Assembly: GCA_050084515.1 (NCBI GenBank)
Contig: CM114271.1
Span: 8,618,001-8,682,000, forward strand
DNA from: Blasia pusilla
Lineage: Eukaryota
DNA length: 64,000 nt
Direction: 5' to 3'
This document shows, piece after piece, positions 1 to 34,925 of the stretch. The notes under the pieces were generated by a model, which was given only the letters and a program-made list of their open reading frames with translations, did not search any database and had not been told where the DNA came from. Positions within the stretch are counted from its first letter, which is position 1, and every line of letters starts with the position of its first letter. The translations under genes and the position numbers were made by a program.

Positions 1-437
1 AGATACACCCCGCACTTCATGAGCGCCATGTCTTCCTTGGTACTCTTGTCTGTCTACTTCCGACGGTTCTTGCGCGATCTCAACAGTGCCCTCTTTGGTA
101 AACTTTTGATAGTTCCGGGTTCTCTTGCCATGAGAAATGAGCAAACTCATGCCCCCGGTGTGACTACTCTACGCCCGATAACCGCCAGTCTTATGTAACG
201 GCCGCCTCTCCCGTAACGGCCTCTTGGCACTCTTTGTGATTTAGGGCAAAAAACTCGAGGACAACGACTCTGCTGGAAGAGACAGAGACTGCGAAGACAA
301 AGAAGGAAAAGACTCGAAGATCACCATTCCTTGTCTTTCCCGAGTCTTTGCGAGTCCTTGGAGTCCTTACTTCACCCGTATGAAATGTTTAGCGCTAGGT
401 CCTGTGCTTGCGCTTTCTCTACCCCCTCCCTCAGTCT

Positions 438-3400: not shown

Positions 3401-6200
3401 TCCAAGAGAACTTGACCAGCTTCTTGGAAGTACTTGATGGCGTTTGGAAAGTAAATCTTCATCTTTTCCAATCTATATTGACATGAGCCCTATAAAGCCA
3501 CGGCCTTCCAATGAGTAAGGGGCAACCTGTGACTATCAAAGGATGAAGGACAAGATAGTCCAATAGGAATAGCACCCCTCCTATCATAGTGGGTACCTGG
3601 GTAAGTTGCCCCAAGGGCCGCTTACGAGACTGATCCGCAAAGCGTAAATACTTATCGGTGGGTTCATACTTAGTGTAACCCAAAGCCTGCGCAGTTTGCT
3701 TTGTCATGATGTTGACCCCACTTTCGGAATCTATAGGCACCTTCTTGATAGTATGCCCTTCAATTTCAACCTCTACTTCCGGCGCACCAAAGTCTTCAAC
3801 TTTTATGCAGAATAGATCCACCACTAGGAGCTTCCTTGCTCCTGTCTTCTTCTGACGTCCAACCTTCCAACGTTGGAGAATTTTCCCATAAATGGGATTA
3901 TCCATAAGTAATTGCAATAAGGATATATTTTTTGGGATGGCAGCCAAATCGTTCAACAAGTTGTAAGCTTCCATCACCAAGAGGGAAGCCACCAAGGTCT
4001 CCATTTTTACTTCTTTGTGCTTGTGTAAAGGTCATGGCGTGCAGACTCCCCTTGCTTGTTCTTCCTGAACTTGGTTACGGACCTGCTTCTCTTCTTCCAA
4101 ATGGAAGTACTTCGCATGATTACCATCAAAAGCCGAGTCCTCATCACCTTTCAATAGAGCTTATCCCGCTTGGTATGTCTCAACCGCTTTCTTCGTAGAT
4201 GGAACACTCAGAGAAGAAGAAGACTTTGGGGTCTTTGCTCTCACAGTTTTCTTCTTAGACTTGGACCTAGTTTCCACTACGAAGACCTCATTGAGAAGGT
4301 CCTCGGGCCCATCTGAGGATTCTTTGTCGATCTTTGTTGCAAGGCCTCTTTCATGAATTGTCATCTTCTTTGGCAACCTTGGTGGGGTGACCTCTTCTAC
4401 ACGCACTAGCTGTATATTAACATCATTCTTGGTTTCGGTGGGTGCCGGTGGGGTGGTGATATATTTGACCAAAAGCCGTGGCTCTTGAGGTTTTGGACAC
4501 TCCACCGCTGTGTGTCCCCCCTTCTTGAAATTACCACATAGAGGATTCAACCCCACATGTCTCTTTGGGTTGAGGCAATTGTTTGTCCAATGATCGGATG
4601 CTAAAAAATTATAGGAGAAATTTCTTTTGATAGGGGGGTGAATGCTGCGGGTCCCATGATATGGCAAAGGGGCCTCTGCTCTCCATATTCAGGCGGCACA
4701 TATATGGGGTCTCCAACTTTGAGAAGTACTAGCCCCAGGAATTGCATGTACCGCGTATCATCCCTCCCGCGGGAAAGCTTCATACCATCCCTCTTCCCTT
4801 GAGGGTTCTTCTTGCATCCAACGTGAGTCTCGGTGCAATGGGCATTCCGGCATTGTATGCCCTTGAGTCCCACATGCACTGCACCAACTATATGTTAGGC
4901 TGCATAAGACGTGGCCTTCTTTGAGGGTCTTTTTGGGCTTCCAAGTGTACTTCTAATTCGGCCATTTGCTTGTCAATTCATTGATGATGGATTTATCCCC
5001 ATCCTTCTTAATCTGACGGGCGGTACTAACAGACTTGCGGCTCTCTGTCTTTGCGCTCTCGTCCTTATGCCCCTTTCCCAAAGACGAAGACCATCTTGGG
5101 CGTCTTGATTTCTTCTTCTTCTTGCCTGTGGAGTCTTCCTCAGACTATGAGTCTTGGCTCCTAGTGTTTCCTGGTGAGGTATCCAAAGAGTCAGAAGATG
5201 GCGAAGACTCCTCTAATGAAGAGCTTTTCCGCTTCCTATGATGTTTCTTCTTCCGCGTTCGCCTGGATTTCTCCAAGGCCTCGTAAGCTTCTACAGAGGC
5301 GATGACAGCAACTAACGAGTCACGCTGCTCCCTACGACAGTAGCAATCCATCTCCTTGGATAAACCCGACACATACCAATCCACCAACTACGGCACAGTG
5401 GTGTGCTCAACCTTACCACCCAAGCTCCAAAACCTCAGAGTGTACTCCCTCAAAGTCTCCTTCTTCCTTGTTTTAAGATCACAAAGGTTTGTAAGTAGGC
5501 AATCATCAAATTCGGGTCTTGTAACTCATGAAGGAATGCCTTAAGCAGGGTCTTCATGAGTGTCCAATCCAGGGTAGACCTTGTAATGCGTCAGAGGTCA
5601 ACGGGTTGCCTCAAGATTATGCTTTGTTGCACCGTCTCGATCGTGGAGTCGCACCGTCATTGTGGAGCAGAGTGTGGGTTTATTGTTGATTGAGGAGGGT
5701 ATGCCGCTGAGTGCCGCATCCCACCATCGAGGGCCGTGCCGTTCGTAGCCGTTCTGTACCGCCTGCAACGCCGCACTGTTCCGCTAGAACCGCACTGTCC
5801 ATCGAGGAGTTTTGAGCAACGTCAGTATGGGAGGAGTATGACTTGCTGGTTGGAGGAGTTATCTCCACGACCGAGTTGGGGTTGAGATTTGAAGTTGTTG
5901 AGGAGCAACATCAACATGTGTTCAGGTTATCCATTCTGGTCCTTTACCTTGCACGCGTCAAGGATTCTGGGATTTGGGTAGTTTATTTGGGGATATTGGG
6001 TTGTGTGGATGCTGAGAGCATCATTTATGTATGTGGTTTAGGGGACATAGACCTGTGTGGGATGTCTGGAGATGAGGGTAGGTTCTCGATGAGATGATAT
6101 CCTGGTCGATTTGCCGCACCACGCCGCTTGTTGCCGCACGTTACACGTCTCGGGGAGGGAGAGTGTAGATCGAGTGCCGCATGTTTGGGATGAGTGATTG
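438..6200 (-). pseudogene. gag-pol of A1 (gag ~4000-6200, PR ~3460-3800, RT ~2420-3100, RH ~1730-2110, INT ~440-1460)
   Basis: ORF fragments at 438, 902, 1485, 2109, 2424, 2907, 3459, 4161 and 5145 carry the motifs in PR-RT-RH-INT order. Confidence 0.9.
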
Positions 6201-6291
6201 AGGGATTACTTGCGAGGTTGAGAGTGATCATGTGAAAGGGGCACAAGGGCCATCACGGCCTTCTTTCAAGATTTTGTGTCGCGACCCTCAT

Positions 6292-6307
6292 GACCAAACG
6301 AGTGCCA
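6292..6307 (-). promoter_or_regulatory. Putative primer-binding site of A1
   Basis: Minus-strand TGGCACTCGTTTGGTC lies between the putative LTR and gag; the cognate tRNA was not identified. Confidence 0.5.
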
Positions 6308-6310
6308 AAG

Positions 6311-7281
6311 AGGAACATCAGAACATTAGCGTGCTCCCGCTAAGATGGTTTGCGTGTTGGAGTGGTCTCGAAGAAGAGACAAGAGACGGGACGCAAGCAA
6401 GGCTTTGCATTTCAGATGTTATGGTCATGAATGAGAAACCTGGACCAAACGCAGAACAAGACTTGAAAGGAGTTGAGTCTAGAAAGTGGGGTTGCCAAAG
6501 GAAGGAATCCGGATTTGGGACGCCACTAGCGTTTGAGAGTTTCCGATTGTATTTATGGCCATAACTTTCAGCGCCAATATGCGTTTGGATTGAACAAGGG
6601 TGCGTTAGAAGGCTTATGGAAAGTCAGTTCAAACGCACTAGAGATCATTTTAAACACATAAGCAGTGGGTGAGAAAAAACCCGAAAACAACTGTTAGTAG
6701 AGTCAGGTTGAGGGCCACAATGAAGGGCCCGACCCTCCTTTTCCAAAGGTGGGGGGTTATTGGAGAACCCCAGAAGTACTAGTAAGGGGGAAGGTCTCCA
6801 AGAGTGCTTGGAACTCGAACCCCACTTTGGGCGCCACGGGGCGGCTCAAGGGCATGGAACGGATCGAGAGTTTGGGGTTGGTTTGGAAAACCTGAACCAA
6901 GTCTATGGAGGCGATTTTAGACATCCCTCTTGGATTTCACCCCGCAACTCAATTACTTGGGTCTCGGTTTGGAACTCATACAAGGTTTGTTGAATAGTTG
7001 GGATCGCTAGGCGCGCAAGTGCCGTTTTAGGTTCCTGGATAAATCAGGAAGTCTGTTCCAAGTCTTGAAGGACTTGCCATGTTTTGGAAACTAGGAAGTA
7101 AGGAAGGTTAAGCTTGATGAGACGCCGAGTTGAGAGCTCGGTGGGTTGGAACGTTGGTTGGCCCAGACCCGACTAACAAGAGTGTGTGTTTGGGTGCAGA
7201 TTGGCGATGAGATCGTGTCCTATTGAACGTACGCTTCCGCAACAATAAAGATTGACGTTCAAGGAGAGTCGGGGCACAACA
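6311..7281 (-). repeat. Putative 5' LTR of A1
   Basis: Starts TGTTGTGCCCC at 7281 on the minus strand, is non-coding, ends at the PBS-like motif, and has a diverged homologue at 42595-42990. Confidence 0.7.
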
Positions 7282-7499
7282 TTTTGAGAGGCAAGGTAGT
7301 GGACCAGAGAGTAGCTCTGGAGGGTTTACCCTGAGTGGTGCGAGGTTTCAAAAGTCTCCACGTGAGAGACCACCTCGATCTCCTTCTGTGTCGTTGTCAG
7401 ACAAGGGGCAGCGTGTAGAGGAGTTTGTGAGCACATCGCCACACATTATGAGTGGTCCTCCCAGTTGGGCGTACAAGATGGACAATCGGGGTAGAGGAC

Positions 7500-8760
7500 C
7501 GCAATGGTTTCAAGTGCAGTAGGCACGATTGAGTTGCACGATTTCATAGCAGAGTTAGGAGTTGGTGTGACTCCCTGCGGGCTTGGAACTCTAGAGAGTT
7601 CAACCCGCTTACAACATGGAACGGTATGTTCCTGCATTTAGAGGGGGCGCCCATGGACAATTTCCACGAGTTCTCTCACAGATATGCACATGAGATCGAG
7701 ACGTGGAGGCTCTACTATGACCCACATTATGTGTCATGGATGGAGCCATTCCCAGATGAGGAGGAGGAGTCAGGAGAGGCTACTTCCTCTTCCACTAGTG
7801 ACATTTTAGGAGGGGTCACTTGCACGGGAGCAGTTGCACCGTCTAGTGGGGTTCGTCCCAGGTTCAACCCTGTGGTTGAGTTTTTTGTTGAGTTGAGGGC
7901 GAGCTACCACGGGGTACGGACGGAGAAGTTGCGGAGCATCCACGACTTCCAGAGGTGCCCGGGTGAGAGTTTGTGTGAGGCTTACACTTGCTTGCGCCGA
8001 TTGATCAACATCACTCAGGGGGTGACAGAGGCTCATGCTATCCAGTCGTGGTACGCGATGCTTGACCGGACCCTACGGACACGGGTGCGGGAGGGGGTGC
8101 TTCTTATAAACACCTCCCCTACATTGAGAGATTTTTTTAGGACCTCCGAGAACATTGAGCGCAACATGGCGGAGGAGAGCGTAGCCACCATGGATTCTGG
8201 GCGAGAGTAGTAACGATTGCCTGCACTACCTATGCAGCAACGTGGACTCCGAGATAGGTTGACTGTGGCACCACGAGCTCAAGAAGGATACCGGGGGGCC
8301 GTGCCATAGAGACTTGCGCCTTCACATGCGGCTCTACAGCAGACACCTACTATTACTTGTTGGTCATGTGGTGGAGCCCATCATCAGCGCGATTGCACTC
8401 GTCAGGGTCATGGACGTGTGCCTTAGCATGGAGGAGGAGATGGTGCTGCACCAAGAGGTTATCAGTATGACTATTGTAAGAGGTATGGTCATACACGCAC
8501 CAGGTGTTTCAATTTACATCCTGAGTTACGTCTGGACCGAGAGCAAGTAGTCGGTCCGAGTGGACCTAGAGATCGTAAACCAAGTGATCCCGTTGGGGGA
8601 CGTGGAGTTGGAGTTTCCCGACACGATGGTGGAGCTGCCCGTGGAGGAGGTAGAGTACCACCACCTAGACGTACCGAGGGAGACTCCAGATGTGAGGCTG
8701 GGATGGCTGCTCAGATACAGCAGCTACAGGAGCAGATTGCCATTATGGCATTGAGGTTAC
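7500..8760 (+). pseudogene. gag of B1 with zinc knuckle
   Basis: ORF 7626-8210 has a retrotransposon-gag-like segment (FQRCPGESLCEAYTCLRRL). CCHC knuckle CWSCGGAHHQRDC at ~8358-8396 and a second degenerate knuckle at ~8465-8510. Homologous to 59358-59965. Confidence 0.85.
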
Positions 8761-9328
8761 TCAATGCCGGATCCGAGGCATCGATATCATATGGAGCGGC
8801 CAGAGATCTGGAGGATCCAAGTTGGATGTGCGGGGTTGCCTAGATGGAGGCAGCCGTAGTTGTGATGGGTGGAGCAACGGCAGAGTTGGATCCATAACGA
8901 GGGGAAGCCAAGAAACATACTAGGCTTCCTCAGTCTTTCACGTTGTCTGAGGCGATGAGGACCCCATCGATGGGTCTTGATCAGAGTTCCTGGAGAGTTG
9001 GTGATGTTGTTGGTGTGCAGGCACGAAGGGCGATGGGAGAAGCAAGTTCAACGACTCCTATTGTTGATGCTTAGGAGGGGCATGTGTCGAGCACGTTGTT
9101 AGGGGCCGCCACCGTTGTGTACCGCACTCCTTTATTTTCTACTTCCGATGTTATGACGTTGGGGGTACGCCCGCCGAGGCTTTTTGGCTGGCCGCTTCAC
9201 TATGTGAGCGCGGATTTGGAGTTCTCGCATCACGTTTAGAGGTGATTGTAGAGGAGGTGATGGACTTGCCCTTGGAGTTGATGCTCGGGTAGTCCACGTT
9301 AGATTCATGGTAGGATTCGGCTGCTAGG

Positions 9329-9720
9329 ATGGCGGAGATGCCCACTAGACCCGCAATAGAGCGTGCCATGGCTTCTCCTGGTGTTGTCTTGCTAGATAAC
9401 CGAGGAGCGGTCTTGCAATTGGTGAGTCTCGGAGGTAGAGCTTTTAGTCCGGAGCGCGTCTTGTTGGATTCAGGAGCGCAATCCCTGATGTTGGGGAAAG
9501 CGTCATTCAGAGGATTGGGCTTGACGAGAGCCGATGTGGAGCGTTGTCCATTCCAGATATAGACTTCCTTGGGTGGAGCGAGTACCACACATTATATCAC
9601 CCGACAAGAGTTCATGGTGAAGATTCGCCCAGGACATCCTACAGATGAGTCCATGGTGCGAGCCAAGGCGATAGTGACTGATGCAGAGTCCTACAACGTC
9701 TTGGTTGGTGGAGGAGTGAA
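9329..9720 (+). pseudogene. Aspartic protease of B1
   Basis: VLLDSGAQSLMLG active site and downstream YNVLVG; homologous to 62350-62760. Confidence 0.85.
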
Positions 9721-9789
9721 GAACCCAAGGTAGCATGGAGTGCTACGATGACACCCTTGGATACCACACCCATTGTGTGGTGTATCCCG

Positions 9790-10003
9790 GAGGAGGGTAT
9801 TTGAGTGTTAGATCTCTTTGGAGGGATTAGCACCCGGTTAGCCGCTATTTTGCAGGTAGAAAAGCGAGTGCACCAGTATCTATATGTGGAGAGTGATGAT
9901 GTTGCAAGGCGTGTCTCACTACGACATGTGGCAGAGTTATGCCTACATTTTCCCAACTTATTATCTGCGTCCGCGGTACAGGGGTACCAGAGTTCCCTAC
10001 CGA
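9790..10003 (+). pseudogene. C5 DNA methyltransferase domain of B1, N-terminal part (motifs I-II)
   Basis: VLDLFGGIS (SAM-binding motif I) and YLYVESDDVARRV; collinear with 63160-63360. Confidence 0.85.
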
Positions 10004-12364
10004 GACCAAAGCGCGGCAGGGTCAATTTCGAAACACCCTCGGAACCAGAACCCACAATTCAAGAGGACTCCGACGAGACGCCTCGTGCTAGCGATCACCG
10101 TCCTGCATTTTGTCTCATGTCCCAGACAGCCAACGACATGGTGTGGTTCCTGAATTTAGCTGTCCCAGTCATGAATCAACTTCAACATGTTCTCCACCTG
10201 GAAAACACAACGATGGTGGACGAGTATTTACAAGCCCTTGATGACCTCAACTGTAGGGCCCAAGCTTCGTCAGAGAACAAAGCACAACGCAAAGTGGCGG
10301 AACAAAATCTTCACCTGTGGGATCAAGAACTCGAAGACACGAAGTCCACGCTTCGCAGAGTTCAAAGCGACTTGGTCCAGAGTCAGTACGAAGCACGGAA
10401 CACACGCCAATGGGAGAGCTTGGCGATTAACCTAGAGTGTGGAGCTGATCAATTAGCTTCGCAGGTCAAGGAAGCTTCGCAACTTATTCAACAATATCGA
10501 CACCAGATGCATCGTGTTAGCAATGAATTCAAGAAATTGGCCACACAACATGCTCAATCTACGAAATTGCTTCAAGAACATCAAGAAACGAACAGAGACT
10601 TAGTGGCGTAGTGGTCAGAGGCTACAGGGAGGATCGTTGTCTTGGAGGCAGAACAGAAGCTACTCAACAAAGTACACTTAGATCCAGAAGATGTCAAGGA
10701 GTTAGTCGACGAAGCAAGCAAGAATTTTGAACAACAGATGAGCGAAGAGATTGACTATGTCAACAAACATTGGAAGCGCCAATTCGACAACCATACGAAG
10801 TCTCTCCCGGAAGTTGTTCCCAACCTCTCAATTACTTTTGAAGAAATACCATTATTTACTCCATTTGATGTCTTAGTCCAGAACAAAGTATTAGGAAGTA
10901 AACTAGTTGTTAATAAATCACGAGAAAGAATGCGCAATCACACCCCCAACATTATCAACAAACCTTCAACTATTCACGGTGGTTTTGCGCCTACATCTGA
11001 GTTTGATAGTTTAGAGGATACTTTTATGGAGTTAGAAGAAACATCCTGATGTGTTCGCCGGGGCGGCTCACATTTGAGGGAGCGGGTATGTGATACCCAT
11101 AATTTTGTACTTTTGAAGAAATATATCTTTTTATTCAACGAAGACTCTTGTACTTTATGATTTTGATTATTTATTATTATGAGGAGGAATGAGTAAGATT
11201 AAAGTGAATTACGAAGCTCCAAGGACAAGGCAGAGAGATAGAAAATCAAGGATTTGCCTAAGAGGAGAGGAGAATAGAATAACGAAGTCTCAAGACCCAG
11301 CAAGAAGCTTCGGAACTATAACGAAGCTCAACGAAGCTCTGTCTACAAAGTGCTTTGCTTTATAAAGAAGCATAATGATGCAGGAAGAAGAAGAGAAAGA
11401 AGTACTTCGCTCTTGTACGAAGCACCTGGAACCCGAACAAAGAATGAAGAGCTTCGTCTTCTGATCAGGAGAAAGAGCTTCCTCCTCAAGCGAACCAAAA
11501 GAGGTCCAGACTTAGCAGCAAAGCGAAGCTAAGATTGACAGTGATTTCAAGCGACACATAGTTAGAACAGTTAGAATAGGAAGAGACGCAACCCTTTGTA
11601 TCAATTTGGTAGTTATGACTATTTTGTTCTGCAAATTCATAGGGATCATAGGAAAAGCAAAGAGCACCATAGATCTAGGTAGTTACAAAAGTTGAAGAGA
11701 CACCAGCTTCATCAAGAACGTTTCGAATCTTTGGATCACTCCTCCTTCAAGGAGTATTTAAGAAAAATAGAAGTAGCTATCATTATCATTCTCTTACGAA
11801 GTCCTCATGCTGTAGGAATGGTCCGAGCAAGGGAGTAGTACCCTCTCGAGCTTGTATACACTTTGAAGCTTTCTCATTCTTGATGGAGTAGTAAAGCAAT
11901 CATTCATTCATTCTGATGTGCGATGTTTATGTCTGAGTATTCTTTTTGGGTCTATAGAGTGAAGAGTGAATGAGGCGAACCTTTCTCATCAATGGAATAA
12001 TCAACATAAAGATTGTAGGAAATTTGTTTGACAGAGAGTAGCCTGCCGAGACGGATTGAGTTCCGAAAGTAGGAGAAGCCAGCTTTCATGTTGAGGTCTC
12101 TGTGAGGTTTCTTGATATCGAGAGGAAATCTACCTGAGCATGCTGTCAATTCCACTAGAGAGAATTGAGAAAATAAACTTTGGTACTAAGAAAGATCTGA
12201 AGATATTGATACGACATTGAATATAAATCATACACATTTAAATACACCTATTACAACATAATTGTAATTTTGAACTCTCTTTTCATCAAAAAATGATCCT
12301 CCTGGGGATCGAACTCAGTAAACGATTGTAAAATAGAAACTCTTATACATTACATATAGCTACA
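10004..12364 (+). mobile_element. LTR retrotransposon family C, 3' fragment (coiled-coil extra ORF, PPT, LTR) inside the B1 methyltransferase
   Basis: Abrupt switch out of B sequence near 10004; Q/E/K-rich ORF to 11049 with one stop; purine tract GAGGGAGCGGG just before the LTR at 11089. Confidence 0.8.
11089..12364 (+). repeat. Family C LTR
   Basis: TGTGATACCC...ATAGCTACA; highly similar inverted copy at 38849-40094 and a fragment at 57508. Confidence 0.92.
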
Positions 12365-12384
12365 AACTTTTTTGTTGTCGCGGG

Positions 12385-13111
12385 TTGGCTGACACTTGGA
12401 CCAGGTTGATTTGGGAGATGTTGAGGATCTTACGATAGTTGCAGGAGCACATGTCTCCTTCTGGAGAATGTGCCGATCTTAGGAGACTCCAGGTAACGGA
12501 TGGTGACAAGTGCTCATCAGGTGCGTGCCTGGATTGGCCCAAAAATGTTATTGCATGTGGCAAGTATAGGTTCTAGAGCCCATCGCCCGCATCTATGGTG
12601 GACCAACTTGATGCCCCATGCAGTGTTACGAAGGACGTATGCGAGAGTGGAGCGCCCCTCCCATTTGTTAGTGGATTCCATTCTGGATCCAGGTCATCGC
12701 TCACAGGCAGTGAGGCATGATGATCGACCACCGTTGACTGTGGTCAACAGGATAGGCAAGCCGCAGGCAGCCTTTCCCACATTTGTGAGTTTTCTCGCTT
12801 CCTATGCATACAAGGAGGCCGGTCTTGGCTTGGTTTGGGATGACCAAGTTCAAAGGTTGGTGGAGCCCACCGCCAATGAGAGAGAGCGGGCGGTGGGATT
12901 TCCCATAGGAGTGACGGCAGTACCGTCAGTATCAGAGGCATCACGATGCCATGTCTTGGGTCAGGCGATGGACATCAACTGCTTGACATGGATCTTCAGC
13001 TTGGGAGTGGCTGAGCAGCGTCAGATGAGATCACGACAGATCACATTGGTTGCGTTGGTGAGCCCCATGCCTACCAAGACGGTGGAGGTAGTGGCTGGGG
13101 GCGAGACCTGA
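12385..13111 (+). pseudogene. C5 DNA methyltransferase domain of B1, C-terminal part (motifs VI, VIII, IX, X)
   Basis: LLENVP near 12460, SIGSRAHRPHLWWTNL, EPTANERERAVGFPIGVT and SRCHVLGQAMDINCL. These match the DNMT3-family pattern ENV / AHRARYFWGNL / EMERVFGFP..YT / RQRLLGRSW. Confidence 0.88.
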
Positions 13112-13309
13112 GGAGATCGACACACCAAGGGAGATTGGGAGAGACACCCTTGGACTTCTTGGGATGTTTTGCAAGTACGCCAGGAGATGATAGTCACAAC
13201 ATCATGCGTGGTTTTGAGCACTGCATGTGGAGGAGATCAGAGTTTGTAGTTGGCAATAGGAGAGCGGCCGAGTGTTGTTGTTCGAGAAGGGGTTGCACCA
13301 TAGCAACCA

Positions 13310-16300
13310 TTGATATCCGCGTCGGAGAGTCCTACCGTAGTCACGATGGAGACTTGGGAGCGAGATATGGGCCCTAAGCTCACAAGAGGAGAGCGGCGCC
13401 GGATACATCAATTCCTCATGAGTTGTAGGAGCTGCTTTGCATTTAGCATGGAGGATTTGGGTACGTTGAAAGGACCGGGGATCCGCATTGAGTTGTCGAG
13501 TGATACGCCGATCTTTCGGAGACCCTATAAGTACAGTGATATGGAAAGGGCTCTATTCAGAGTAGGAGCCAGGACTAGTGGAGATGTTGCATGGGGAGTA
13601 TGCATTTGCCATTGTCATGCCCGCCAATAAGGATGTACATGGCAACTAGATGGATAGGCGACTGTGTAGGGATTACTGACCTATCAATTGGCAAAAGAAG
13701 TCCAATAGGTATGCCATGCCCACCGTTGAGGAGATCTTTGATGCGATTGGTCACGCAAAGGTCTTCAGTTCATTGGATTTGCGAGCTGGATACCATCAGT
13801 TGCTTATCAGATTGGAGGACAAGCAGAAGACAGCATTTTGGGGCATCGATCCTCACGGGAAAGATTGTTTGTACCAGTGGCGGTTCTTACCATTTGGGTT
13901 AAAGAACGCCTCGACGGAGTTTCAAAGGGTCATGGATAGAATCTTGGATGGTGTGGATTTTGCTGTGTGTTATATTGATGACATTATAGTCTTTGGCGCC
14001 ACGGTTGAGGAGCATGAGCAACGATTGCAATTACATGGGCTGAAGCTACATCCAGGCAAGTGCAAGTTCTTCTACGACCTGATTGAGTACTTGGGTCATA
14101 CGATATACCCAGGGGGCCTTGGTGTTCAGCAGACAAAGGTAGAGGCTATCTCACGCATTCCATGCCCTACAGATGTGAGCCGTGCTCGCGCATTCATGGG
14201 ATTGGTGAACTTCTATCGGTGGTACGTCAAGGGATTCACTTCGATTGTGCAGCCGCTAACCTTGCTGACCAAGGTGGATCACAAGTGGCACTGGGCGGAT
14301 AAGCAAGAGCAAGCATTTCAGTTGCTCAAGGACAAGTTGACGTCTGCGCCCATCTTGAGGAGACCGATCACGGGGCGTCCTTTCCATTTGCACATAGATT
14401 GGAGCATGTTGGGGCTTGAAACAGTGCTCACCCAGCATGATGATGAGGGTAGAGAGTTCATGGTGGCTTACGCTAACTGCTCAAACAACGCTGTAGAGGC
14501 AAAGTACAGCTCGTATGAGGGTGAGTGCTTGGATGTAGTGTGGGCTGTCGCACATTTCAGGTGGTACTTATTCGGAAACCCCTTTACCATCATCACTAAT
14601 CATCAACCACTGAAGTGGTTGATAGAGTCCGACAAGCTTACAGGGAAGCTTGTGAAATGGGCTCTGTTGTTGCACGAGTATGATTTTCAGGTGGTACATA
14701 GACTTGGGACGCTTAACCAGAATGCAGATAGATTGAGTCGTAACCCGTGCCCGAGTTAGCGAGATGCGACTGGAGCTCGATGGCATGGAGAGAGTGATGA
14801 GGAGTTAGTGCCAGGATGGCACGCGACAGCCTATTTAGGCATGTTGGCTATGGAGAGCCAGAGTGTGGAGACTTCAATGGCAAGGTCTAGTGGAGAGTCC
14901 TTGGATCCTGAGGCTAGTGAGGAGAGCACATGTGGCCGAGATATTCATGATGATGGAGTAGTCTTGGAGTACCATCGTACTCGCAGCGTTGTGAGCACCG
15001 TGGGTGCTAGAGAGCGGGACCGGATCCTACAGCGGGCCAGACGGTTCCGTTGGGAGGGGACACATGTTTTGAGGATTTGGGAGGATGGCACTGTACGCAT
15101 AGTGCCGCAACCTTTGTAGAGAGCACAACAAGTGCAGCATGCCCAGGAGGAGTTGGGTCACTTTGGGGTGAAGCGGACATACAGCTTGCTCTAGATTCTG
15201 TATTGGTGGAGAGGCATGCAGACTGACGTTCAGCAGTTTGTTGCCAGATGCATGGTGTGTGATCGGGTCCGAGCATCGTTGAATGCTCCGATTCCACAGT
15301 TGCATCCATTACCTATCATGGGCTTAGGGTATAGATGGAGTTTGGATTTTGCAGGACCTTTGCCTTTGACGGAGCGTCACAATCGTTATGTGTTGGTGAT
15401 GGTTGAGCACTTCTCGAAGTGAATCGAGTTGGTTGCATTTCCTGACAAAGTGAGTGAGAGAGTAGCTTATGCCTTCCTTGATAGAGTGATGAGTCATTAT
15501 GGCACACCGGCTGAGGTGTTCATAGATCATGGTACCGAGTTTCATGGTGAGTTCCACGCCTTGTGTGATCAGGCGATGATCGACCACCACACAACTTCAT
15601 GAGATCATCTTGAGGCGGATGGATAAGCAGAGAGAGTTGTGCAGACGGTGAAGAGGGGTTTACGCAAGTATGGCTTGCAAAGAGGTCACGTAGGAGATTG
15701 GGATCTCCAATTGCCATGGTTGGCGATGGGATACATATTTACCAGGCACACATCCTTAGCATCTTTTTCCCCGTACTTGCTACTTTGTGGTCGAGAGCCA
15801 GATTTACCTGCGGCCATTTGTCGAGATGCTGGTGAGGTGCTGGACCTTTATGACCTAGATGTATGGATCCGAGCATGTTCTCAGAGGGCTAAGTTGTTTC
15901 GGAGAGTGATGCCCATGGCGTTTGAGACCTTGGCGATTGTGCATCATGGGGATACGTTGAGGTATGCAACTATTTGGGGTGGTGGTTATCAACCAACCAT
16001 TTAGAGGTTTCATCAAGGAGATTATGTCTACTTGCAGCAGACGGCACCCACGACGTTGGATGTGACTGCAGGGCGCACTATCTTGAGAGTGCGTGACGTT
16101 TTGCCATCTGGTATTCTCTTGCTGGAGGGACACGATGGTATGGTATGGAAGGACCATGTGCCTAATTTTGCGCCATGTCACCTTCCTAACATTGATGGTA
16201 CAGTAGATCCGAGCTTAGCAGTAGTTCCTATAGGCTTGCGTTGTATGTTGTGTGGTTCTGCTCGTGGTGCGGCCACAATGCTAGTATGTGATGGATGTTC

Positions 16301-16382
16301 GAGAGGTTGGCATATGGCGTGTCTGAAGCCACCTCTCATTGGGGTTCCTCGGGGACAATGGATGTGTCCCAGATGTACATAG
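13310..16382 (+). pseudogene. RT, RNase H, integrase and C-terminal PHD finger of B1
   Basis: SLDLRAGYHQ, LPFGLKNA, YIDD; RNase H YSSYEGEC and NQNADRLSR; integrase H2C2 (LGHFG...CMVC) and WSLDFAGP; C4HC3 PHD at the end. Confidence 0.93.
16242..16376 (+). other. PHD finger at the integrase C-terminus of B1
   Basis: CMLC-x10-VCDGC-RGWHMAC-LKPPL..VPRGQWMCPRC, a complete C4HC3 ligand set. Confidence 0.92.
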
Positions 16383-16570
16383 AGGAGATACTACGTAGGT
16401 TTTGATTCCAACTTTTTCCGTGATATGGATGACAGGAAAGCGACTAACAATGGGGCCACATGAGCACTTGGCCTTTATGCTCTTAGCGTCCTAGAGATGT
16501 ATGTCATGGTAGGTAGGGATAGATGGCTATCTAGAGTTAGAGAGACCTAACCACCAGCTAGGGGGGCGAT

Positions 16571-16696
16571 TGGAGATATTTTAGTACTTCTTCTCTCGTT
16601 GTTTGGATGCCATGAGTTAGCATGGGATCGTACGTGTTTGTGTGTGTGTTCGGTGACAGCGATGTATGTTATGTAGTGATGTGTATGTGCACGACA
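16571..16696 (+). repeat. Internally deleted family B LTR (TG plus the last 124 bp)
   Basis: Directly follows the PPT; 16573-16696 is a close copy of 17216-17339. Confidence 0.8.
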
Positions 16697-16698
16697 AT

Positions 16699-17339
16699 TG
16701 TCACGTCTTTTAGGATAGATTGGTGAGATCTAGTAGAGCACCTTCGTGAGTAGTGGAGGACAGGATCAGTAGGTCGAGGATGACCTGCTGAGGCCCCGGG
16801 AAACCTGAGAGAGCAGGTTTCCTTTTGTTCAGCTCATTTGGAGCCATATTGAGCAACTTACTATTTTAGGTAAGTTCCATTTTGAGTATATTATGGACTT
16901 TCTATTTTTTGTAAGTGGCCCTTGACCTTCTACATCAGATCAAGAGCCAAGGAGGTGACTTGGAAGAATAGGTTACCATGGAGAGAGCTTGGGAGAGGGG
17001 AGGGGTATACCTCAAAGAGAGAGAGTTTGAGAGCTCATTCTCTCTTTGTTAAACCTCTTAGCATGAGGCGGCGGAGCTATGCTCCCTTGCCCTGTGAGTG
17101 TAACCCAAGCCTCTCATTAGGAAAGTGGGTTTGGTTTGACGTGAGAGAGAGTGCACACCTTTGAGAGCTATGGTGTGAGATGGTGTAGAGAGAGAGATTG
17201 CATCTTACTTTATAAGAGATATTTTAGTATTTCTTGTCTCGTTGTTTGGATGCCATGAGTTAGCTTGGGATCGTGCGTGTTTGTGTGTGTGTTTGGTGAC
17301 AACGATGTATGTTGTGTAGCGATGTGTATATGCACGACA
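16699..17339 (+). repeat. Family B LTR (~640 bp)
   Basis: TGTCACG...GCACGACA termini; family D coding sequence begins immediately after 17339. Confidence 0.8.
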
Positions 17340-20300
17340 TCTAATACGGGCATAATGAGACCCATCATCCATGACTTTGGTCTCCATTCTAGATGTTATG
17401 ATGTAAGGCTGCCCAAGAATCACAAGATAAGCAACTCCATTGTGAACAAACAAAGTTTGCTCAATCAACACATCTCTTATCCAAGTTTTGACGAATGGAC
17501 AAGCACCTCAGAGTTAATATTTTTGGTTGTTAGCCGCATGTAGTATCCATCCATGCCCTATATCAATTGGACACATCCCTTTATCGTATATACTTCACGA
17601 TATGATGTTGATCTTCGAACCATGATCAAGGAGAGCCAGAACTGACTCTTGGAGAGAGCCAAGTTGAACTCTAGCCTTTGTCGTTGCACGCGCCCAATAT
17701 GACCAAGAATAGTGTCCACCATTGTGCATTTTCTTCACCTTGTTCTGTCAAGGCTTCTCCTACTCTCTCTTCTTCTCCTTTTAAGTCAAGCTTTTGTCCA
17801 AAAACTTGGCAAAGTTCTTCATCTTCTTCTTCTATGATGTCAGTATCCAATGCCCTCACCATCACCGTATCTGCAGTAATCTGCCTTTTTCTTTTGATCA
17901 CATCTATGATCAACTTATGAAAGTCACGTCTGGCTATGCCCAAGACGTCCCTCAAAGAAAAATCTATTTTTGCATCCAAAATCCTCTCCTCAAGAATCTC
18001 CTTCAAATTCGTGCTTGTCTCTATATCAGACTGCAACTTGTATGTAGGAGTCTTACCCTTGGTCTTCTGAGAAGACCTAAATTCTTTCTCATGCATTCCA
18101 CCTTCTTTCATATGAGAATCCATCATAGATTCATATGTAGAAGGCCCTTCTTCTCTTGATGCCTGCGTCTCTGGTTGCCCTTTCCTTCTTGCGGTCCTCG
18201 CTCTTCTTGCAGCTTCTTCAGGATCAACACCATCATTTTCGTATCTCCTCTTCTCCTCCACACTAGCATCTTGCCAACTCACATGTTTCTCTTGTGCTAG
18301 GTATGCTTTAACAATCCTAGCTTCCACTGGATCATCCCATCTAGTCACGTGGCGGATAGTCTCTGCCCCTCGGAGCATCACTTCTCGAGGAAATTCTAAT
18401 GATTCACTTTTAGCTACAGATACAATAGGCACTTCTATTTTTAATTCAAAGGTATCAAAATCTTATGTTCTAGTGGCAACTCCTACTTGACCTCTCACTA
18501 ACCTTTTCATTCCTCCTCTACCAAAGTTCGTATTCAACAACATATCAGTCTGCGTTGAATGAATCTTCCCATCTTTGAAGTTTAGTATTCCATTCCTAAG
18601 AGCTTCTGTAATCTCCTCACATTCTCGACGTTGATGCTCAACACTATCACACCATAAACATCTTCTCACAAAGTTCCTACTTGTCGAAGGAGCACCAACA
18701 CTAGGATTCCTATCAAGTTTAAGCTCAACCATTTCTACTCTCAATTCTCTCAAACCTTTCACCAACTCATCAATTTTAGAATCTTCAAGCTTTGCTAACA
18801 TGGGCTTAGGCAATGGATTTGAAATTGATACCTCCAACTCAAATAGTGCGGTTCTACCTCTACTTTGACTTTGCTTTGTGAGGATAGCAACAGCTTCTAC
18901 CACTTTCTTCCAATTAGTGTTGGCACCTCCTTCTTCGGTCTTATTTGCCAACATTATGAAAAGCTTGTCCTCCAAATTCTCATCCGCCGTTTCAAGGAAC
19001 AACTCGGTTTTCCTCAAGTCTAGAGTTGCCCTTTCGTAAGAAGAAAGTTGAAAAACCCGCTTCTCAAACTCGCGCAAAAATTCTTTTGGAGTCATTCCCT
19101 TCCTCGGATGTTGCTCTATCCATTCTAGAAAACTCCTCTTAGTCACCCGATCCACATGATCATCGAAGAATTGTCCTTTAAGCAACTGCTCATACTCCTC
19201 CCAGGACGTTCCATTTTATGCTCTCAACTTCTTTACTTGACTACGGATCTCTGGAATTACAACTAACTCAAAACTTGATACCATATCACCTTCGGGTAGA
19301 AAATTTACCTCCATCTCACAAAGGTACTCTCGAACATACTTGGCGATGTTCCTCCCATAAAATCTCCCCAACTTCTTTAAAATCCCTTGGAGAGTCCTTG
19401 TTGATCTTTGCTCTCCTATGTGAACTCCTCCTTGATGGCTCAACAATATTGTCAAAGTTTGGAGAAGATCCTCAACTCCCTTAGTTCCCATTGATGAAGT
19501 ACTTCCAAAAGGAGTCATCTTGATAAGACTCCAACTTGCAAACACAATCTACCGCCTCAAAGATCTCTTAGTGGAAGCATCATTTGCCGTGTCGAGAGCC
19601 TTTCTTCGAGTAAGGGCAGACCTTCTAGTTGCAACAGACGTGGTTGATGCAAGTTAAACTCTATAACAATTTCTACTTTTTCAATAAAATTTTATGTAAA
19701 CTCTTCATTCTCTCACGATAGGAATCACAAATGGTAGTGCCTAGGCAATTACTTCTTTAACACATGAAACCCCGAAATTCCTAACTATGAAATCCCTCTA
19801 AACTACTTTACGTTTGTACACAAGAAAAATAGCATAACTAGTGTTAAACCCTACTTGAGCAGGCCTATTGACGTCCATGGATAGCTATATAAGGACATAC
19901 AAAGTGCAATCCCATGTCCTTCCGTATATGACTATAGGAAGAAAAATACTGGAGTTGGAGATTGCATGATTTGGTTCATGAACGCCTCCCCAAAGTGATA
20001 AACTAGATAGCGAGTGAACTAGTGCCTATCTACAAAGAGAATCTTGACGAGGTACGGGTTAAGAAAAGGAAAATCCGGCACAACTCGTGCTCCATCTCTA
20101 TCCATATTTGACAAACATCTTCTACTCTCCTCTAGAATGGGATTTGGCGGAGTTGCTCTCCCAAGAGGGGTAATCCACTCTCATTGGGAAAATAATAAGC
20201 CAAACCATTCTTTATTTCTAGTATGACTAAACTCATCCAAGGTGACAAGTATCTCATCTCCACACATACCACACTCTAAAAAAAGCTTGAAGATTAGACC

Positions 20301-20852
20301 AAGGTCAAGTTACTCTCCCAAGAGGGGTAATCCACTCTCATTGGAAAACCAAGCAATCCCAAAGCCATACACTCAAGAGTGACACAAGAGACTCGAGATG
20401 TGAAGTAGAAGGTGATGAACCCTTGAAGGTCCCTCCTTTTTATAGACTTACAAGGGTACCAAATAGGGCTAATCTTATCTTGTGCCACATGGTTTCCTCT
20501 CAAGGCTTAGCCAATCACATTTTGACATAAGTAGATTACCTCTTATTTCTTCCAAAATATCCTCTTTTACTCTCTTCATATCTTCCAAACTACCCCACCA
20601 ATCCTAGCCACCAACCAAAACTACATTTGCTTTTATTTTATTAAAGCATCAACCCTACTTCTTACTTTGCTAATCCCATCTTTTATTTACTATCTCTTTT
20701 CCTAAAGTTGGGCCCGCGCAAATGAGTCATCCTAAAAAGGTTCAAACATGAGAATTTCATTTTCCTAAGCTAATTTACTTAATAAAAATAAAACTCTCTC
20801 TAACACTTAATGATAGAGGAGTTTACATAGCTGATGATTTTACTATATGATA
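17340..20852 (-). mobile_element. LTR retrotransposon family D (probably Gypsy), copy D1: LTR 19585-20852, PBS, gag, protease; cut by B1
   Basis: gag ORFs 19216, 18463 and 17671 with knuckle CLWCDSVEHQRREC; protease LLDHGS and ILGQPY; LTR homologous to 34926-36198 and 59966-61150. Confidence 0.88.
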
Positions 20853-22170
20853 TTGGTAAAATTGGACCGCTCCGACGAATCTCCTCATCCCCTTAACATT
20901 GGAAGGCGGTTCCCATTCAGAAATCGCGCTTACCTTCTCCATGTTTGGACTCAATCCATATGCACTAACCACATGCCTCAAAGACTTAATCTTTGTCAAA
21001 CACTCTTGTCCGCATTCGCATACAGCTTGTTCGCCCTGAGTTTCTCAAACACTGTCTTCAAATGTCGAGCGTGCTCCTCTAGTGTTTTCAAATAGATGAG
21101 TATGTCATCTATGTAGATGATCATATACTCATCTGTCTCCTTATAAAAGAAGGAGTTCATCAAAGTGGTGAACGTCGGAGGCACATTACATAAACCAAAA
21201 GGCATTGCCACAAACTTGAACGAATCGTATCTCGTCTTATACGCAGTCTTCTCTACATCCACTTCCGCAATCCGAATATGATAATATCATGATTTCAGGT
21301 CAATCCTACTAAAATACTTGGCACCTAACAATCGATTAAAGAGGTCATCCATCCTCGGAAGAGGATAGTTTTTCCTTATCGTCATTTAATTCATCGCCCG
21401 ATAATCAACACAGAGTTTCAACTTTCCATCCTTCTTCTTCACAAAGAGAACGGATGCTCCATAAGGTGACTTGCTAGTTTGGATGTAACCCCTTTCTAAG
21501 AGTTTATCCAACTGTTTCTTCAACTCTGTAAGTTCCCCTTGATTCAACCTATATCGTGCCTTTGAAGATGGTCGAGATCCGGGTGTCACCTCTATCTTAT
21601 GATCAACCGCCCTATGTGGTGGCAACTTAGTCGGAAGCTCCTTAGTAAAAACATCATCAAATTCTCTCAAAAATCTCTTGAGTGGTTCAGGGATTTCCCT
21701 TGAAGTTGAGTGATGATGTCTACATCTCGCGCTTGCGTCATCCTCTACTTGTCTCATCAAGCTAAGAAAGCCTTCCTCTTATTTGGTCGAACTCGTTCTT
21801 GTGATGGCATTCACCAACTCCGTCTTCCTAGGAACCTCACGAACCAATCTGACGTGCATCCGTTTGCCGTTTACCAAGACGCTCAACCTTAAAGGTATTT
21901 GCCTCAGTTCCACCTCATATGCATCTAAGAATGTGTTCCCCAAGACTCCATTGATTCCGTCCATATCGCAGACTGTGAAATTCTCCTTTAACTCGAATAC
22001 TCCGCATCCCACAACTAGTCTTAAAACCAACTTTGAGGTCTAGTGGGACTTGCCTCCCGCAAAACCTACCCTAATGGGTTTGTCTGCCTTAGTGATTGGA
22101 AATCCCAACGCCTTCACGATTCTCAGGCTCAAGAAGGAGAGCAAAGCACTTGTATTAACGAGCAACATCA
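20853..22170 (-). mobile_element. Ty3/Gypsy family E (chromovirus-like), protease-RT part
   Basis: DHKIEVTPGS...SPYGASVLFVKKKDGKLKLCVDYRAMN, MPFGLCN, YIDD. The protease reading joins 41652 across the CACTA insertion. Confidence 0.88.
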
Positions 22171-22654: not shown

Positions 22655-27720
<5,066 letters not shown>

Positions 27721-33990: not shown

Positions 33991-34925
33991 TAGTATATTT
34001 CATGCTCCACTCGGACGAGTTGCACATTTACGTCATTCTTGGACTCTGGTTGGACTGCTAGGGTGTTGACATACTTTACCAACAACCGCGGGACCTTGGG
34101 CTCCGGGCATTCCACTGTAGTGTGCCCGCCCTTCTTGCAATTTCCGCACAATGGATTGAGTCCTACTGGCCGCTTTGGAGTTGGGCAATTATGAGCCTAG
34201 TGGTCAGCTGCCCCGTAATTATAACAACAATTCCTTTTTATGGGTGGCGTGAAGGCTACGGCGCCCATAATCTGTCTCAGGGGTCTTTGTTCCCTGTATT
34301 CTAGAGGCACATATCAGGTGATCCAACTTCGTCCGAGATTAGATGGTGGCACAGCTTGGATTGCATAGCACCCTTCCCACTGTTCGGGTTCATACCACCC
34401 TTCTTCTGTAGTTGGATCTTCCTGGATCCAACGTAAATCCCTCTGATTATGACATTCCTGAGCAGTATGCCTTTGGGTTCCGCAAGTATTGCACCAGATG
34501 TTGGGCCTCATCAAACCTGGTCGTCTTCAGGAATCCTTCTGGGCCGTAAGATGTACCTTTAATTCCGCCTTTTTTTTACTTAGCTATTCAATGGCAGACT
34601 TGCCTGCCTTCCTCGCTGTCCCCCTCATTGGACTTTCCGACCGTTGGGGAAGGTGCTTTGTTGGTCGGGTTTTCCTTCCGTGCTTGGGAGAGTGGTGGTG
34701 CGTGATTTTTCTTTTCCGCTTAGATTTTAAATATTTTTCGGAGTCATAGAGGATTCCGTGTGTGTGGAAGACGCTTCGTCCTTCAACGAAGCACTAGTTT
34801 GCGAATAACCTCGTCATTGGTGATGCCATCTTCGTATTTTACGGGACTTCTCTTAGGCCTCGTACGCCTCTACGGAGGCTATGACTGCTTCCAAGGAATC
34901 TTGTTGGCCTCGCCGGCATTACCGG
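33991..34925 (-). mobile_element. Family A gag fragment (A3)
   Basis: RPNIWCNTCGTQRHTAQEC and EEGWYEPEQWEG; homologous to ~4500-5330 and 46950-47800. Confidence 0.85.

Follow-up and report, generated by a model that had tools for sequence, protein, structure and literature searches.

Element A, at 7467-17339 on the plus strand of the window (the whole 64,000-nucleotide stretch of Blasia pusilla DNA analysed here), is a Ty3/Gypsy-type retrotransposon that is decayed and incomplete at its 5' end. We consider it very likely, with a probability of roughly 85%, that it belongs to a bryophyte Ty3/Gypsy family in which pol encodes a DNMT3-type C5 cytosine methyltransferase (MTase) between the protease (PR) and the reverse transcriptase (RT) and a PHD finger after the integrase (INT), and that this family is like KnitGypsy-Dnmt3 of the charophyte alga Klebsormidium nitens and probably of the same lineage. 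Element A itself is a dead copy, a relic without functional consequence.

Architecture and ends of element A

Pfam searches and guide proteins recover the domain order gag-PR-MTase-RT-RNase H-INT-PHD, in good agreement with the first-pass annotation, which had placed a DNMT3-like C5-MTase within the pol of a Gypsy element and a PHD finger behind its integrase. The pol order that defines Ty3/Gypsy elements, PR-RT-RNase H-INT with a DDE integrase, is thus present. All features described below lie on the plus strand. The gag region (7467-9185), which carries a CCHC knuckle (CWSCGGAHHQRDC, 8358-8396) and seven stops in the guided frame, was mapped by tblastn of residues 26-546 of the Marchantia protein P0157 onto 7542-9185 (39% identity); homology starts at about 7467-7542, the former value being extrapolated from P0157 residue 26. 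The aspartic protease (9155-9727, frame 2, three stops; P0157 residues 537-725, 47% identity) has its DSGA at 9467-9478 and gives a weak Pfam match to Asp_protease_2 (E 0.052). Downstream of the MTase, RT (YIDD at 13971-13982) and RNase H occupy 13340-15074, with 55-63% identity to residues 691-1190 of Marchantia P0160 and Pfam matches within 13680-14759 to RVT_1 (E 1.7e-20) and RT_RNaseH (E 1.5e-27). The integrase (14817-16200), consisting of an H2C2 zinc finger and a DDE core, is matched by P0036 and P0180 at about 40% identity and, when stops are read as X, by Integrase_H2C2 (E 2.3e-14) and rve (E 1.1e-10) in 15120-15626. The pol C-terminus is formed by the PHD finger (16242-16376; PF00628, E 6.8e-12) in an ORF that ends at 16382, and Marchantia P0213 is 60% identical over 15336-16379. 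The integrase and PHD stretch together contain seven stops; over the whole element we count about two dozen stops and no fewer than four frame changes, which affect every domain.

The best solved relatives of the PHD finger are those of CHD4, PHF12, KDM5B, KDM5A (PHD1), DPF3, ATXR5, PHF21A and AIRE, and the finger of element A presumably resembles readers of unmodified H3K4, which we take to be the ligand of these relatives. Pfam finds no chromodomain after the integrase of element A; the PHD finger stands there.

The 3' end is built from repeats. Terminal repeat B1 (16573-16696) adjoins on the upstream side a putative LTR-like repeat, A2 (16699-17215, extent tentative), which was recognised by its homology to the A2 junction of two related loci, L044 and L070; the stretch 16414-16703 is likewise homologous to the sequence preceding A2 in these loci. 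A second copy of B, B2 (17216-17339, 93% identical to B1), forms the 3' end of the element: homology shared with the relatives stops at the end of B2, and position 17336 is where reads of the adjacent element's RNA break off (34, 19 and 39 reads). Loci L044 and L070 have the full arrangement A1-coding-B1-A2-B2, with A repeats of about 330 bp; the homology they share begins with A1 and ends with B2. Element A retains B1-A2-B2 (16573-17339) and lacks A1: no similar stretch was found upstream of gag or elsewhere in the window. Nor were two flanking long terminal direct repeats found, as 5800-7700 and 16300-17800 show no similarity and a Smith-Waterman comparison of the 5' and 3' ends gave a score of 25, where shuffled sequences averaged 23.4 (sd 2.6). 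Of the bounds proposed in the first-pass annotation, 7282-17339, the 3' one is therefore upheld by the B2 end and the read breaks, and the 5' one is not, given the gag start and the missing 5' repeat.

A DNMT3-type methyltransferase in a split and in a continuous state

The MTase of element A lies in two parts, an N-terminal one at 9742-10004 (frame 1; P0157 residues 862-948, 61% identity) and a C-terminal one at 12380-13168 (frame 1 and then frame 2, with stops; P0157 residues 985-1243, 54-56% identity). Between them sits a 2375-bp insertion (10005-12379), delimited by the gap in the guide protein, by repeat matches and by reads, whose first portion (10005-11088) is single-copy and holds a coiled-coil-like ORF, and which continues as a dispersed repeat (11089-12372) that recurs at 40094-38841 (92%) and 57510-57687 (95.5%). 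Ten DNA reads (run X18) bridge from 10004 to 12380 and skip the insertion, with letters in between being possible. Per orientation, element parts are covered by DNA reads to a depth of 7-69, compared with about 1 for unique parts and likewise about 1 for 10340-10873 of the insertion; depth and insertion-skipping reads together point to sister copies of element A.

All the motifs quoted in the first-pass annotation are present: motif I (LDLFGGI, 9808-9828), motif VI (LENV, 12461-12472), motif VIII (HRPHLWW, 12581-12601), motif IX (ERERAVGF, 12878-12901) and motif X (LGQAM, 12956-12970). They do not, however, continue in a single frame as it had stated, since frame 1 holds motif I and the YVESD at 9883-9897 and motifs VI-X are read in frame 2, and the insertion between them had gone unmentioned. 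The insertion replaces the stretch with motif IV (PCQ, containing the catalytic Cys), which is absent from element A, P0157 residues 949-984 having no counterpart; the family possesses this motif. With motif IV deleted, the MTase split and stops throughout, element A is unable to make the enzyme. The similarity that remains is extensive: the 204-aa ORF at 12497-13111 matches 754 representative proteins at E<=1e-3, of which 370 remain at E<=1e-10, and by sequence comparison the MTase motifs of element A are far beyond chance.

A second copy, element B, enters the window from 59343 onwards (+). Its gag and protease (59343-63092), mapped with P0157, are collinear with those of element A (42-64% protein identity), contain many stops and are interrupted at 59963-61150 by a piece of another element, which matches 34923-36198 at about 89%. 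The MTase follows at 63093-64000, where it leaves the window, and is 64.5% identical to Marchantia P0157. Motif I (LDLFGGI, 63165-63185) is in frame 0 and is followed by a frame change at about 63248, from which point the MTase has no stop in 251 codons and displays PCQG (63434-63445), LENV (63563-63574) and HPRLWW (63686-63703). The two elements are collinear, with 42-72% protein identity (about 50%) and the MTase at the same place, and element B is a second, decayed and diverged member of the family. Among the traits of the PF00145 family, motif I is found in both copies, and motifs VI, VIII, IX and X follow in linear order; in the RxR of motif VIII one Arg is His in both copies, the second Arg in A and the other position in B.

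The PF00145 search that the first-pass annotation had recommended gave a divided outcome. None of the three element A fragments matches, even at E<=1, and element B scores 21.9 bits (E 1.3e-4) against the gathering cut-off of 22 bits. Intact relatives, by contrast, score 27.7-46.1 bits, and the cut-off is passed by six of eight relatives scanned, by P0007, P0023 and P0036, and by P0293 and P0294. In a phmmer search of element B against solved structures nothing was found at E<=10; the profile search alone finds matches.

The missing PF00145 match in element A and the foreign DNA that interrupts it are what one would cite in favour of a one-off chimera, in which a single Gypsy copy had picked up a host DNMT3 fragment or unrelated pieces had been joined in assembly. 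We reject this explanation, whose probability we consider negligible. Element B carries the domain at the same place, single ORFs with the order PR-MTase-RT-RNase H-INT exist elsewhere (P0023, 2188 aa; P0293, 2352 aa), Marchantia P0160 joins MTase, RT and RNase H in one ORF, and the family profile search returned 348 matches at E<=1e-10. Furthermore, DNA reads from an independent run cover both MTase halves and bridge the insertion site. The domain thus keeps its position family-wide, in element B and in hundreds of relatives, and the absence from other members by which the first-pass annotation would have recognised a one-off insertion is not what we find.

To which MTases the family domain is nearest was read from a profile of 22 sequences (family profile A1) searched against solved structures. 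For the catalytic domain, the top-scoring structures are animal DNMT3A (E 1.1e-23, 86.8 bits), DNMT3C (E 5.9e-22, 81.1 bits) and DNMT3B (E 1.7e-21, 79.5 bits), followed by tobacco DRM (E 8e-11, 44.3 bits), M.HhaI (E 6e-9, 38.2 bits) and DNMT2 (E 9e-7, 31.0 bits); DNMT1 is not among the 57 chains matched at E<=1. Motifs I, IV-VIII and IX-X of the profile are collinear with DNMT3A, without a DRM-like rearrangement. By score ranking rather than by a tree, the family MTase is of DNMT3 type, nearer to DNMT3 than to other C5 methyltransferases. Pfam detects neither PWWP nor ADD in the window or in the scanned polyproteins; behind the integrase there is a PHD finger instead.

Conservation in relatives and possible roles of the enzyme

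The named relatives belong to three bryophyte genera, Marchantia, Calypogeia and Sphagnum, and to two of green algae, Cymbomonas and Scenedesmus, with no K. nitens protein among the named matches; one search gave 27 matches, including 14 from Marchantia polymorpha, two from Calypogeia fissa and two from Sphagnum. In the MTase tree, elements A and B are nearest to Calypogeia. Two domain orders coexist in the wider family, green algae having a sister form with the MTase behind RNase H. The first-pass annotation had suggested that such an element may be undescribed in a land plant. Our literature searches found no article on bryophyte Gypsy-DNMT3 elements, in keeping with this suggestion, but publicly available annotations of Marchantia, Calypogeia and Sphagnum already include proteins of the family, and later papers, in their available text, take 'streptophytes (Gypsy-DNMT3)' as known.

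All catalytic motifs show 91-99% conservation among relatives whose identity is only 30-60%. The catalytic Cys is retained in 185 of the 186 relatives covering the column, the Glu and Asn of ENV in 187/195 and 189/196, the motif VIII Arg residues in 199/218 and 205/214, and the second Gly of motif I in 167/170. Such deep conservation of catalytic residues argues for constraint. The individual copies are worn: near-full MTase stretches in related metagenome loci have 1-12 stops in 30 of 30 cases, and no ORF longer than 365 aa occurs in the 20 related loci examined. Among 433 pairs of the 30 decayed metagenome copies, the median dN/dS of the MTase core is 0.58 (below 1 in 425 pairs), which is no lower than that of the adjacent linker (0.59); values below 0.2 have been reported for K. 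nitens.

These data bear on whether the enzyme still acts on DNA. An RNA substrate, or a structural role in the polyprotein, has a precedent in SymbioLINE-Dnmt, for which the main text of PMC5890265 reports no DNA methylation in yeast and suggests an RNA substrate, and in 50 of 185 relatives the residue preceding the catalytic Cys is Glu instead of Pro. Against it stand the conserved catalytic motifs and the DNA enzymes DNMT3A/B/C, which score about 50 bits above the tRNA enzyme DNMT2, and we regard a non-DNA role as quite improbable.

Hosts combat transposons chiefly by cytosine methylation, and a transposon-borne de novo methyltransferase is for that reason a paradox. In intact members the MTase would be part of Gag-Pol and would hence travel with RT and integrase; it would most likely carry out de novo methylation of the element's own new cDNA or of the insertion site, and the PHD finger might tether the integration complex to chromatin unmethylated at H3K4. 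We put this mechanism forward as a whole only tentatively, at somewhat less than even odds. Packaging and cDNA methylation had been proposed for the present element in the first-pass annotation; as element A cannot make the enzyme, the proposal could apply to intact members at best. The cDNA-methylation idea has already been discussed in PMC5890265.

The Discussion of de Mendoza et al. 2018 (PMC5890265) also raises the option of self-restraint, in which the MTase marks the element's own copies for silencing, keeping copy number and host damage low and prolonging the life of the family. Several observations are consistent with it: every copy in the window and in the related loci is decayed; sense-strand RNA coverage is low, deriving from reads 95-99% alike, presumably from sister copies, at a depth of 0.1-5 (with 6-12% of each run read); and the window has A/T where the reads have G/C at 256 places, compared with 119 for the reverse, an excess that fits deamination of methylated C. 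The same data, however, fit ordinary host silencing of any transposon. Moreover, the CpG observed/expected ratio is 0.67-0.69 in elements A and B versus 0.47-0.55 in the window's other elements, so that CpG depletion is weaker than in MTase-free neighbours and gives no hint that these copies were methylated at CG to an unusual degree. We consider self-restraint unlikely.

On a broader scale, a lineage shared with KnitGypsy-Dnmt3 might have persisted since before plants came onto land and be active in liverworts as writer-reader modules, with the PHD finger taking the part of ADD and insertions arriving already methylated in chosen chromatin. This picture is doubtful, well short of an even chance. 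If it were true, with tens of transcribed copies per genome, transposon DNMT3 could supply a measurable share of de novo methylation in bryophytes, among them the model Marchantia. With its many annotated copies and its amenability to genetics, Marchantia polymorpha would allow the role of transposon DNMT3 to be tested.

Relation to known systems

DNMTs in retrotransposons were described from Symbiodinium and from K. nitens (KnitGypsy-Dnmt3) by de Mendoza et al. 2018 (PMC5890265), the paper that the first-pass annotation had correctly cited. According to its main text, the A-coding region-B-A-B arrangement is found in DIRS elements, and KnitGypsy-Dnmt3 combines the same repeats with Gypsy domains. 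The elements described here share with KnitGypsy-Dnmt3, as presented there, a Gypsy pol with a non-rearranged DNMT3 domain inside, the A-coding-B-A-B repeats (in full in loci L044 and L070) and a streptophyte host; they differ in that their hosts are land plants and in a weaker selection signal, as judged by dN/dS. From these features the bryophyte elements, of liverworts and Sphagnum mosses, appear to be of the same kind as the charophyte Gypsy form, with the same odd terminal repeats, which extends to bryophytes a form previously described from one charophyte alga. Kinship with KnitGypsy-Dnmt3 is judged here from architecture. Neither 'PHD' nor 'chromodomain' occurs in the main text of PMC5890265, and the PHD finger may be an addition relative to KnitGypsy-Dnmt3 or may simply have gone unmentioned there.

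SymbioDIRS-Dnmt3, whose acquisition the same text treats as independent from that of KnitGypsy-Dnmt3, is likewise described with a DNMT3 domain in the Pol polyprotein, A-coding-B-A-B repeats and two coexisting domain orders. It is, however, a DIRS element with a tyrosine recombinase, whereas element A has a DDE integrase (rve) and the Gypsy order. The 'EpiLTRs' and DAM retrotransposons (bioRxiv 10.64898/2026.05.21.726589) similarly unite a DNA methyltransferase and a chromatin-targeting domain in one unit, but the available text of the preprint describes adenine methyltransferases and a DNMT4-related module with chromodomains, and states that the EpiLTR acquisition is distinct from streptophyte Gypsy-DNMT3.

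The order of motifs I to X is the same in host DNMT3 enzymes (animal DNMT3A/B/C and bryophyte enzymes such as MpDNMT3b) as in the family MTase, which differs from them in having no Pfam match to PWWP or ADD beside it, in its longer VIII-IX stretch, and in being intronless and contained in a polyprotein. Chromoviruses carry a chromodomain at the integrase C-terminus that is thought to guide integration; a chromatin reader after the integrase is common to both, but here it is a PHD finger of the CHD4/KDM5/BHC80/AIRE type. By analogy, the presence of PHD finger and MTase on one polyprotein suggests a reader-writer pairing that parallels the ADD-DNMT3 pairing of the host.

Domain content and decay of copy A

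The stop-to-stop ORFs on the plus strand between 7.5 and 16.4 kb of the window hold retroelement domains arranged in Gypsy order. In this element (copy A, 7467-17339, +) Pfam recognises RVT_1 and RNase H at 13680-14759 (+; E 1.7e-20 and 1.5e-27), Integrase_H2C2 and rve at 15120-15626 (+; E 2.3e-14 and 1.1e-10, with X at the stops in the translation) and a PHD finger at 16242-16376 (+; E 6.8e-12). Domain extents outside Pfam come from tblastn mapping of guide proteins from Marchantia and metagenomes, which places gag at 7542-9185, the protease at 9155-9727, the methyltransferase (MTase) in two parts at 9742-10002 and 12382-13168, RT-RNase H at 13340-15074 and integrase-PHD at 14817-16376, all on the plus strand. 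Taken together, Pfam and guide-protein mapping establish that the first-pass observation of a Gypsy element with an MTase in pol and a PHD finger after the integrase is real, and each motif quoted there was found at its place. The interpretation attached to it was largely right. The copy is a relic, and elements of this kind were already known.

Decay is extensive. The coding body goes through at least four frame changes (0, 2, 1, insertion, 1, 2, 0) and contains some two dozen stops within the guided frames. Since the Marchantia guide proteins P0157 (gag-PR-MTase) and P0160 (MTase-RT) each read the corresponding stretches as one ORF, we regard the frame changes as damage. Residues 949-984 of P0157, PCQ included, have no counterpart in copy A, which is therefore devoid of the catalytic cysteine, and about 137 residues of the protease-MTase linker are missing as well; 107 DNA reads diverge from the window at 9718. 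The search with PF00145 that had been proposed as a check failed on copy A, whose three fragments gave no match even at E ≤ 1.

Between 10004 and 12380 copy A is interrupted by 2375 bp of foreign DNA that are not part of the element. The 5' portion of this insertion is single-copy, with a long coiled-coil-like ORF, and the 3' portion is a 1284-bp dispersed repeat also present at 40094-38841 and 57510-57687. The coiled-coil-like frame (10005-11049) continues the reading frame of the MTase N-terminus for about 200 open codons, followed by one stop and 145 more codons, and Pfam returned no significant match on it. The AT-rich 1.3-kb repeat (11089-12372, 38841-40094 on the minus strand, and 57510-57687) has a left boundary common to the three copies, which are 92-95% alike, and a DNA depth of 8-18 per orientation.

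Other repeats surround the element. One family occupies 17340-20859 (-), 34919-38140 (+) and 59963-61150, its two long copies being 86% alike, with gag-like ORFs bearing a CCHC knuckle at 17671-19215 (-) and RNA reads in sense orientation at depth 2-7 over 17282-18883. Inverted copies of a different Gypsy family, 75-79% alike and devoid of an MTase, lie at 420-5334 and 46951-51846; in RT they share about 31% identity with copy A. A 134-nt flank, 92% alike, is common to two long (CT)n runs (22659-22904 and 27586-27718), and a tandem array with units of about 70-110 nt is found near 41.1-41.5 kb (41128-41470).

A second copy and the DNMT3-type methyltransferase family

A second, diverged family member, copy B, fills the final 4.7 kb (59343-64000, +); it is collinear with copy A and runs off the window end. 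Protein identity between the two is 42-53% in gag, 52-64% in the protease and 52-72% in the MTase. That the MTase was a one-off insertion, a possibility raised in the first-pass annotation, is contradicted by this diverged copy with the domain at the same position; there is no third MTase copy in the 64-kb window. Copy B is interrupted at 59963-61150 by a fragment of another element, a 1.2-kb piece of the 17340-20859 repeat family located inside gag. It changes frame at about 63248, downstream of which 251 open codons retain PCQG, ENV and motif VIII, and scores 21.9 bits with PF00145 against a cut-off of 22.

While phmmer with copy B found no match among solved structures at E ≤ 10, a profile of 22 family MTase sequences alone succeeded, with DNMT3A as its best match (E 1.1e-23, 86.8 bits) alongside DNMT3C and DNMT3B. 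Weaker matches were tobacco DRM (8e-11), M.HhaI (6e-9), DRM2 (5e-7) and DNMT2 (9e-7), and DNMT1 was absent from the 57 chains matched at E ≤ 1. In the alignment to DNMT3A, motif I, motifs IV-VIII and motifs IX-X occur in that enzyme's order; the domain thus lacks the DRM rearrangement. Domain scans of the family polyproteins found neither PWWP nor ADD beside the MTase. Among the relatives covering each column, the catalytic cysteine is retained in 185 of 186, the E and N of ENV in 187/195 and 189/196, and the two motif VIII arginines in 199/218 and 205/214. The residue before the catalytic cysteine is Glu rather than the canonical Pro in 50 of 185 relatives.

A search with the 204-aa ORF of copy A yielded 754 cluster representatives at E ≤ 1e-3, of which 370 reach E ≤ 1e-10 and 22 reach E ≤ 1e-30; a Marchantia homologue is found in 'C-5 methylase' clusters. 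Querying with copy B recovered 27 longer proteins at up to 64% identity (14 from Marchantia polymorpha, two from Calypogeia fissa, two from Sphagnum and nine unnamed), and the profile search (348 matches at E ≤ 1e-10) added Marchantia paleacea and two further Sphagnum species. Cymbomonas and Scenedesmus contribute more remote members. The database relatives P0023 (2188 aa) and P0293 (2352 aa) are continuous polyproteins, both in the order CCHC, PR, MTase, RT, RNase H, INT.

Two pol layouts can be distinguished: PR-MTase-RT-RH-INT(-PHD) in the window and in bryophytes (layout 1), and RT-RH-MTase-INT-PHD in many unnamed proteins and named algae (layout 2). In P0032, P0034, P0036, P0090, P0180, P0294 and other relatives the MTase follows RNase H and precedes the integrase, mostly accompanied by a PHD finger; the Scenedesmus and Cymbomonas proteins belong here too. 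A coverage rule reduced 300 sequences to 139 MTase cores, 42 of them without a layout label. In a FastTree of these cores, one split with support 0.91 holds 40/40 layout-1 proteins and 1/57 layout-2 proteins, an almost clean separation of the layouts. Copies A and B are closest to Calypogeia, with Marchantia next, so that, judged by transposon proteins alone, a liverwort is the probable host.

Intact relatives were sought in related metagenome loci, but among 30 near-full MTase stretches there, none was without a stop. The dN/dS among these 30 copies was 0.58 and equal in the linker; we set it aside as evidence for selection because it does not distinguish the MTase core from the linker. CpG depletion gave no support for self-methylation, being weaker in copies A and B than in neighbouring elements. 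As to base composition, G+C is 0.50-0.52 in 7470-16382 and 59343-64000 versus 0.445 in the rest of the window, G exceeds C on the coding strand of both MTase-bearing copies (skew about +0.2), and observed/expected CpA is 1.46-1.52 in A and B versus 1.06-1.14 in other elements. The best solved relatives of the PHD finger are the CHD4 PHD fingers (E 4.7e-16), followed by PHF12, PHD1 of KDM5B and KDM5A, DPF3, ATXR5, PHF21A, AIRE and UHRF1, most of which bind H3 tails with unmodified K4.

Sister copies and their expression

The DNA and RNA sequencing runs used all bear one organism label. In the DNA run X18, depth was 7-69 per orientation on parts of the element versus about 1 on the unique part of the insertion. 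Since only 245 of the 5242 placed reads were at least 99% alike, they must represent about ten to several tens of sister copies, 95-99% alike. The insertion is lacking in sister copies, since ten DNA reads connect 10004 with 12380; the joint shows the ends only, and a direct join would be out of frame. Most sister copies also differ from copy A in the RT region at 13909-13999, where 89 bases are absent from 57 DNA reads and 13 RNA reads.

Three RNA runs gave 235, 241 and 229 placed reads, nearly all 95-99% alike; the weak expression they reveal is that of sister copies rather than of the copy A locus. The first mate falls mostly on the minus strand over the element body and on the plus strand over the minus-strand neighbour, which is consistent with sense transcription, provided that the libraries are stranded in the usual way.

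Within 5000-21000, differences between the window and the X18 reads comprised 133 A>G and 123 T>C versus 60 G>A and 59 C>T, the window mostly having A or T where sister-copy reads have G or C. Such an excess would be expected if methylated cytosines of copy A had been deaminated.

Termini and comparison with published elements

No LTR pair flanking copy A was found; its sole repeat is one of 124 nt, at 16573-16696 and 17216-17339 (93% alike). A match to this repeat at 5940-6110 was rejected as weak, GT-rich and of low complexity. In the related metagenome locus L044 the order is A1 (1768-2074), coding region, B1 (10378-10494), A2 (10499-10837) and B2 (10855-10971); L070 has the same layout, and homology between these loci extends from the start of A1 to the end of B2. 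Because 16414-16703 of copy A is homologous to the stretch preceding A2 in both, we assign B1 to 16573-16696, A2 to about 16699-17215 and B2 to 17216-17339, with A1 missing. The 3' end at 17339 proposed in the first-pass annotation was right, RNA reads of the neighbouring element breaking at 17336. On the 5' side, loose ends of DNA reads tentatively suggest that sister-copy homology may begin near 6276.

Our literature search found no article on bryophyte DNMT-carrying Gypsy elements, and nothing relevant on PF00145 with retrotransposons, PHD-integrase Gypsy elements, split direct repeats or Marchantia gene names. The words Marchantia, Physcomitrella, liverwort and moss are absent from the main text of de Mendoza et al. 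2018 (PMC5890265); its supplements and those of PMC12344493 may list bryophyte copies. A 2026 preprint (bioRxiv 10.64898/2026.05.21.726589) counts 'streptophytes (Gypsy-DNMT3)' as known. New here are the host range, now extended to bryophytes and among them a model liverwort, the presence of a PHD finger in the MTase-bearing polyprotein, and the sister layout in green algae. The arrangement A-coding region-B-A-B is the DIRS repeat order, and KnitGypsy-Dnmt3 of Klebsormidium nitens is described as combining that repeat structure with Gypsy domains (PMC5890265). This common repeat structure is the strongest link between KnitGypsy-Dnmt3 and the family in the window, a likeness in architecture.
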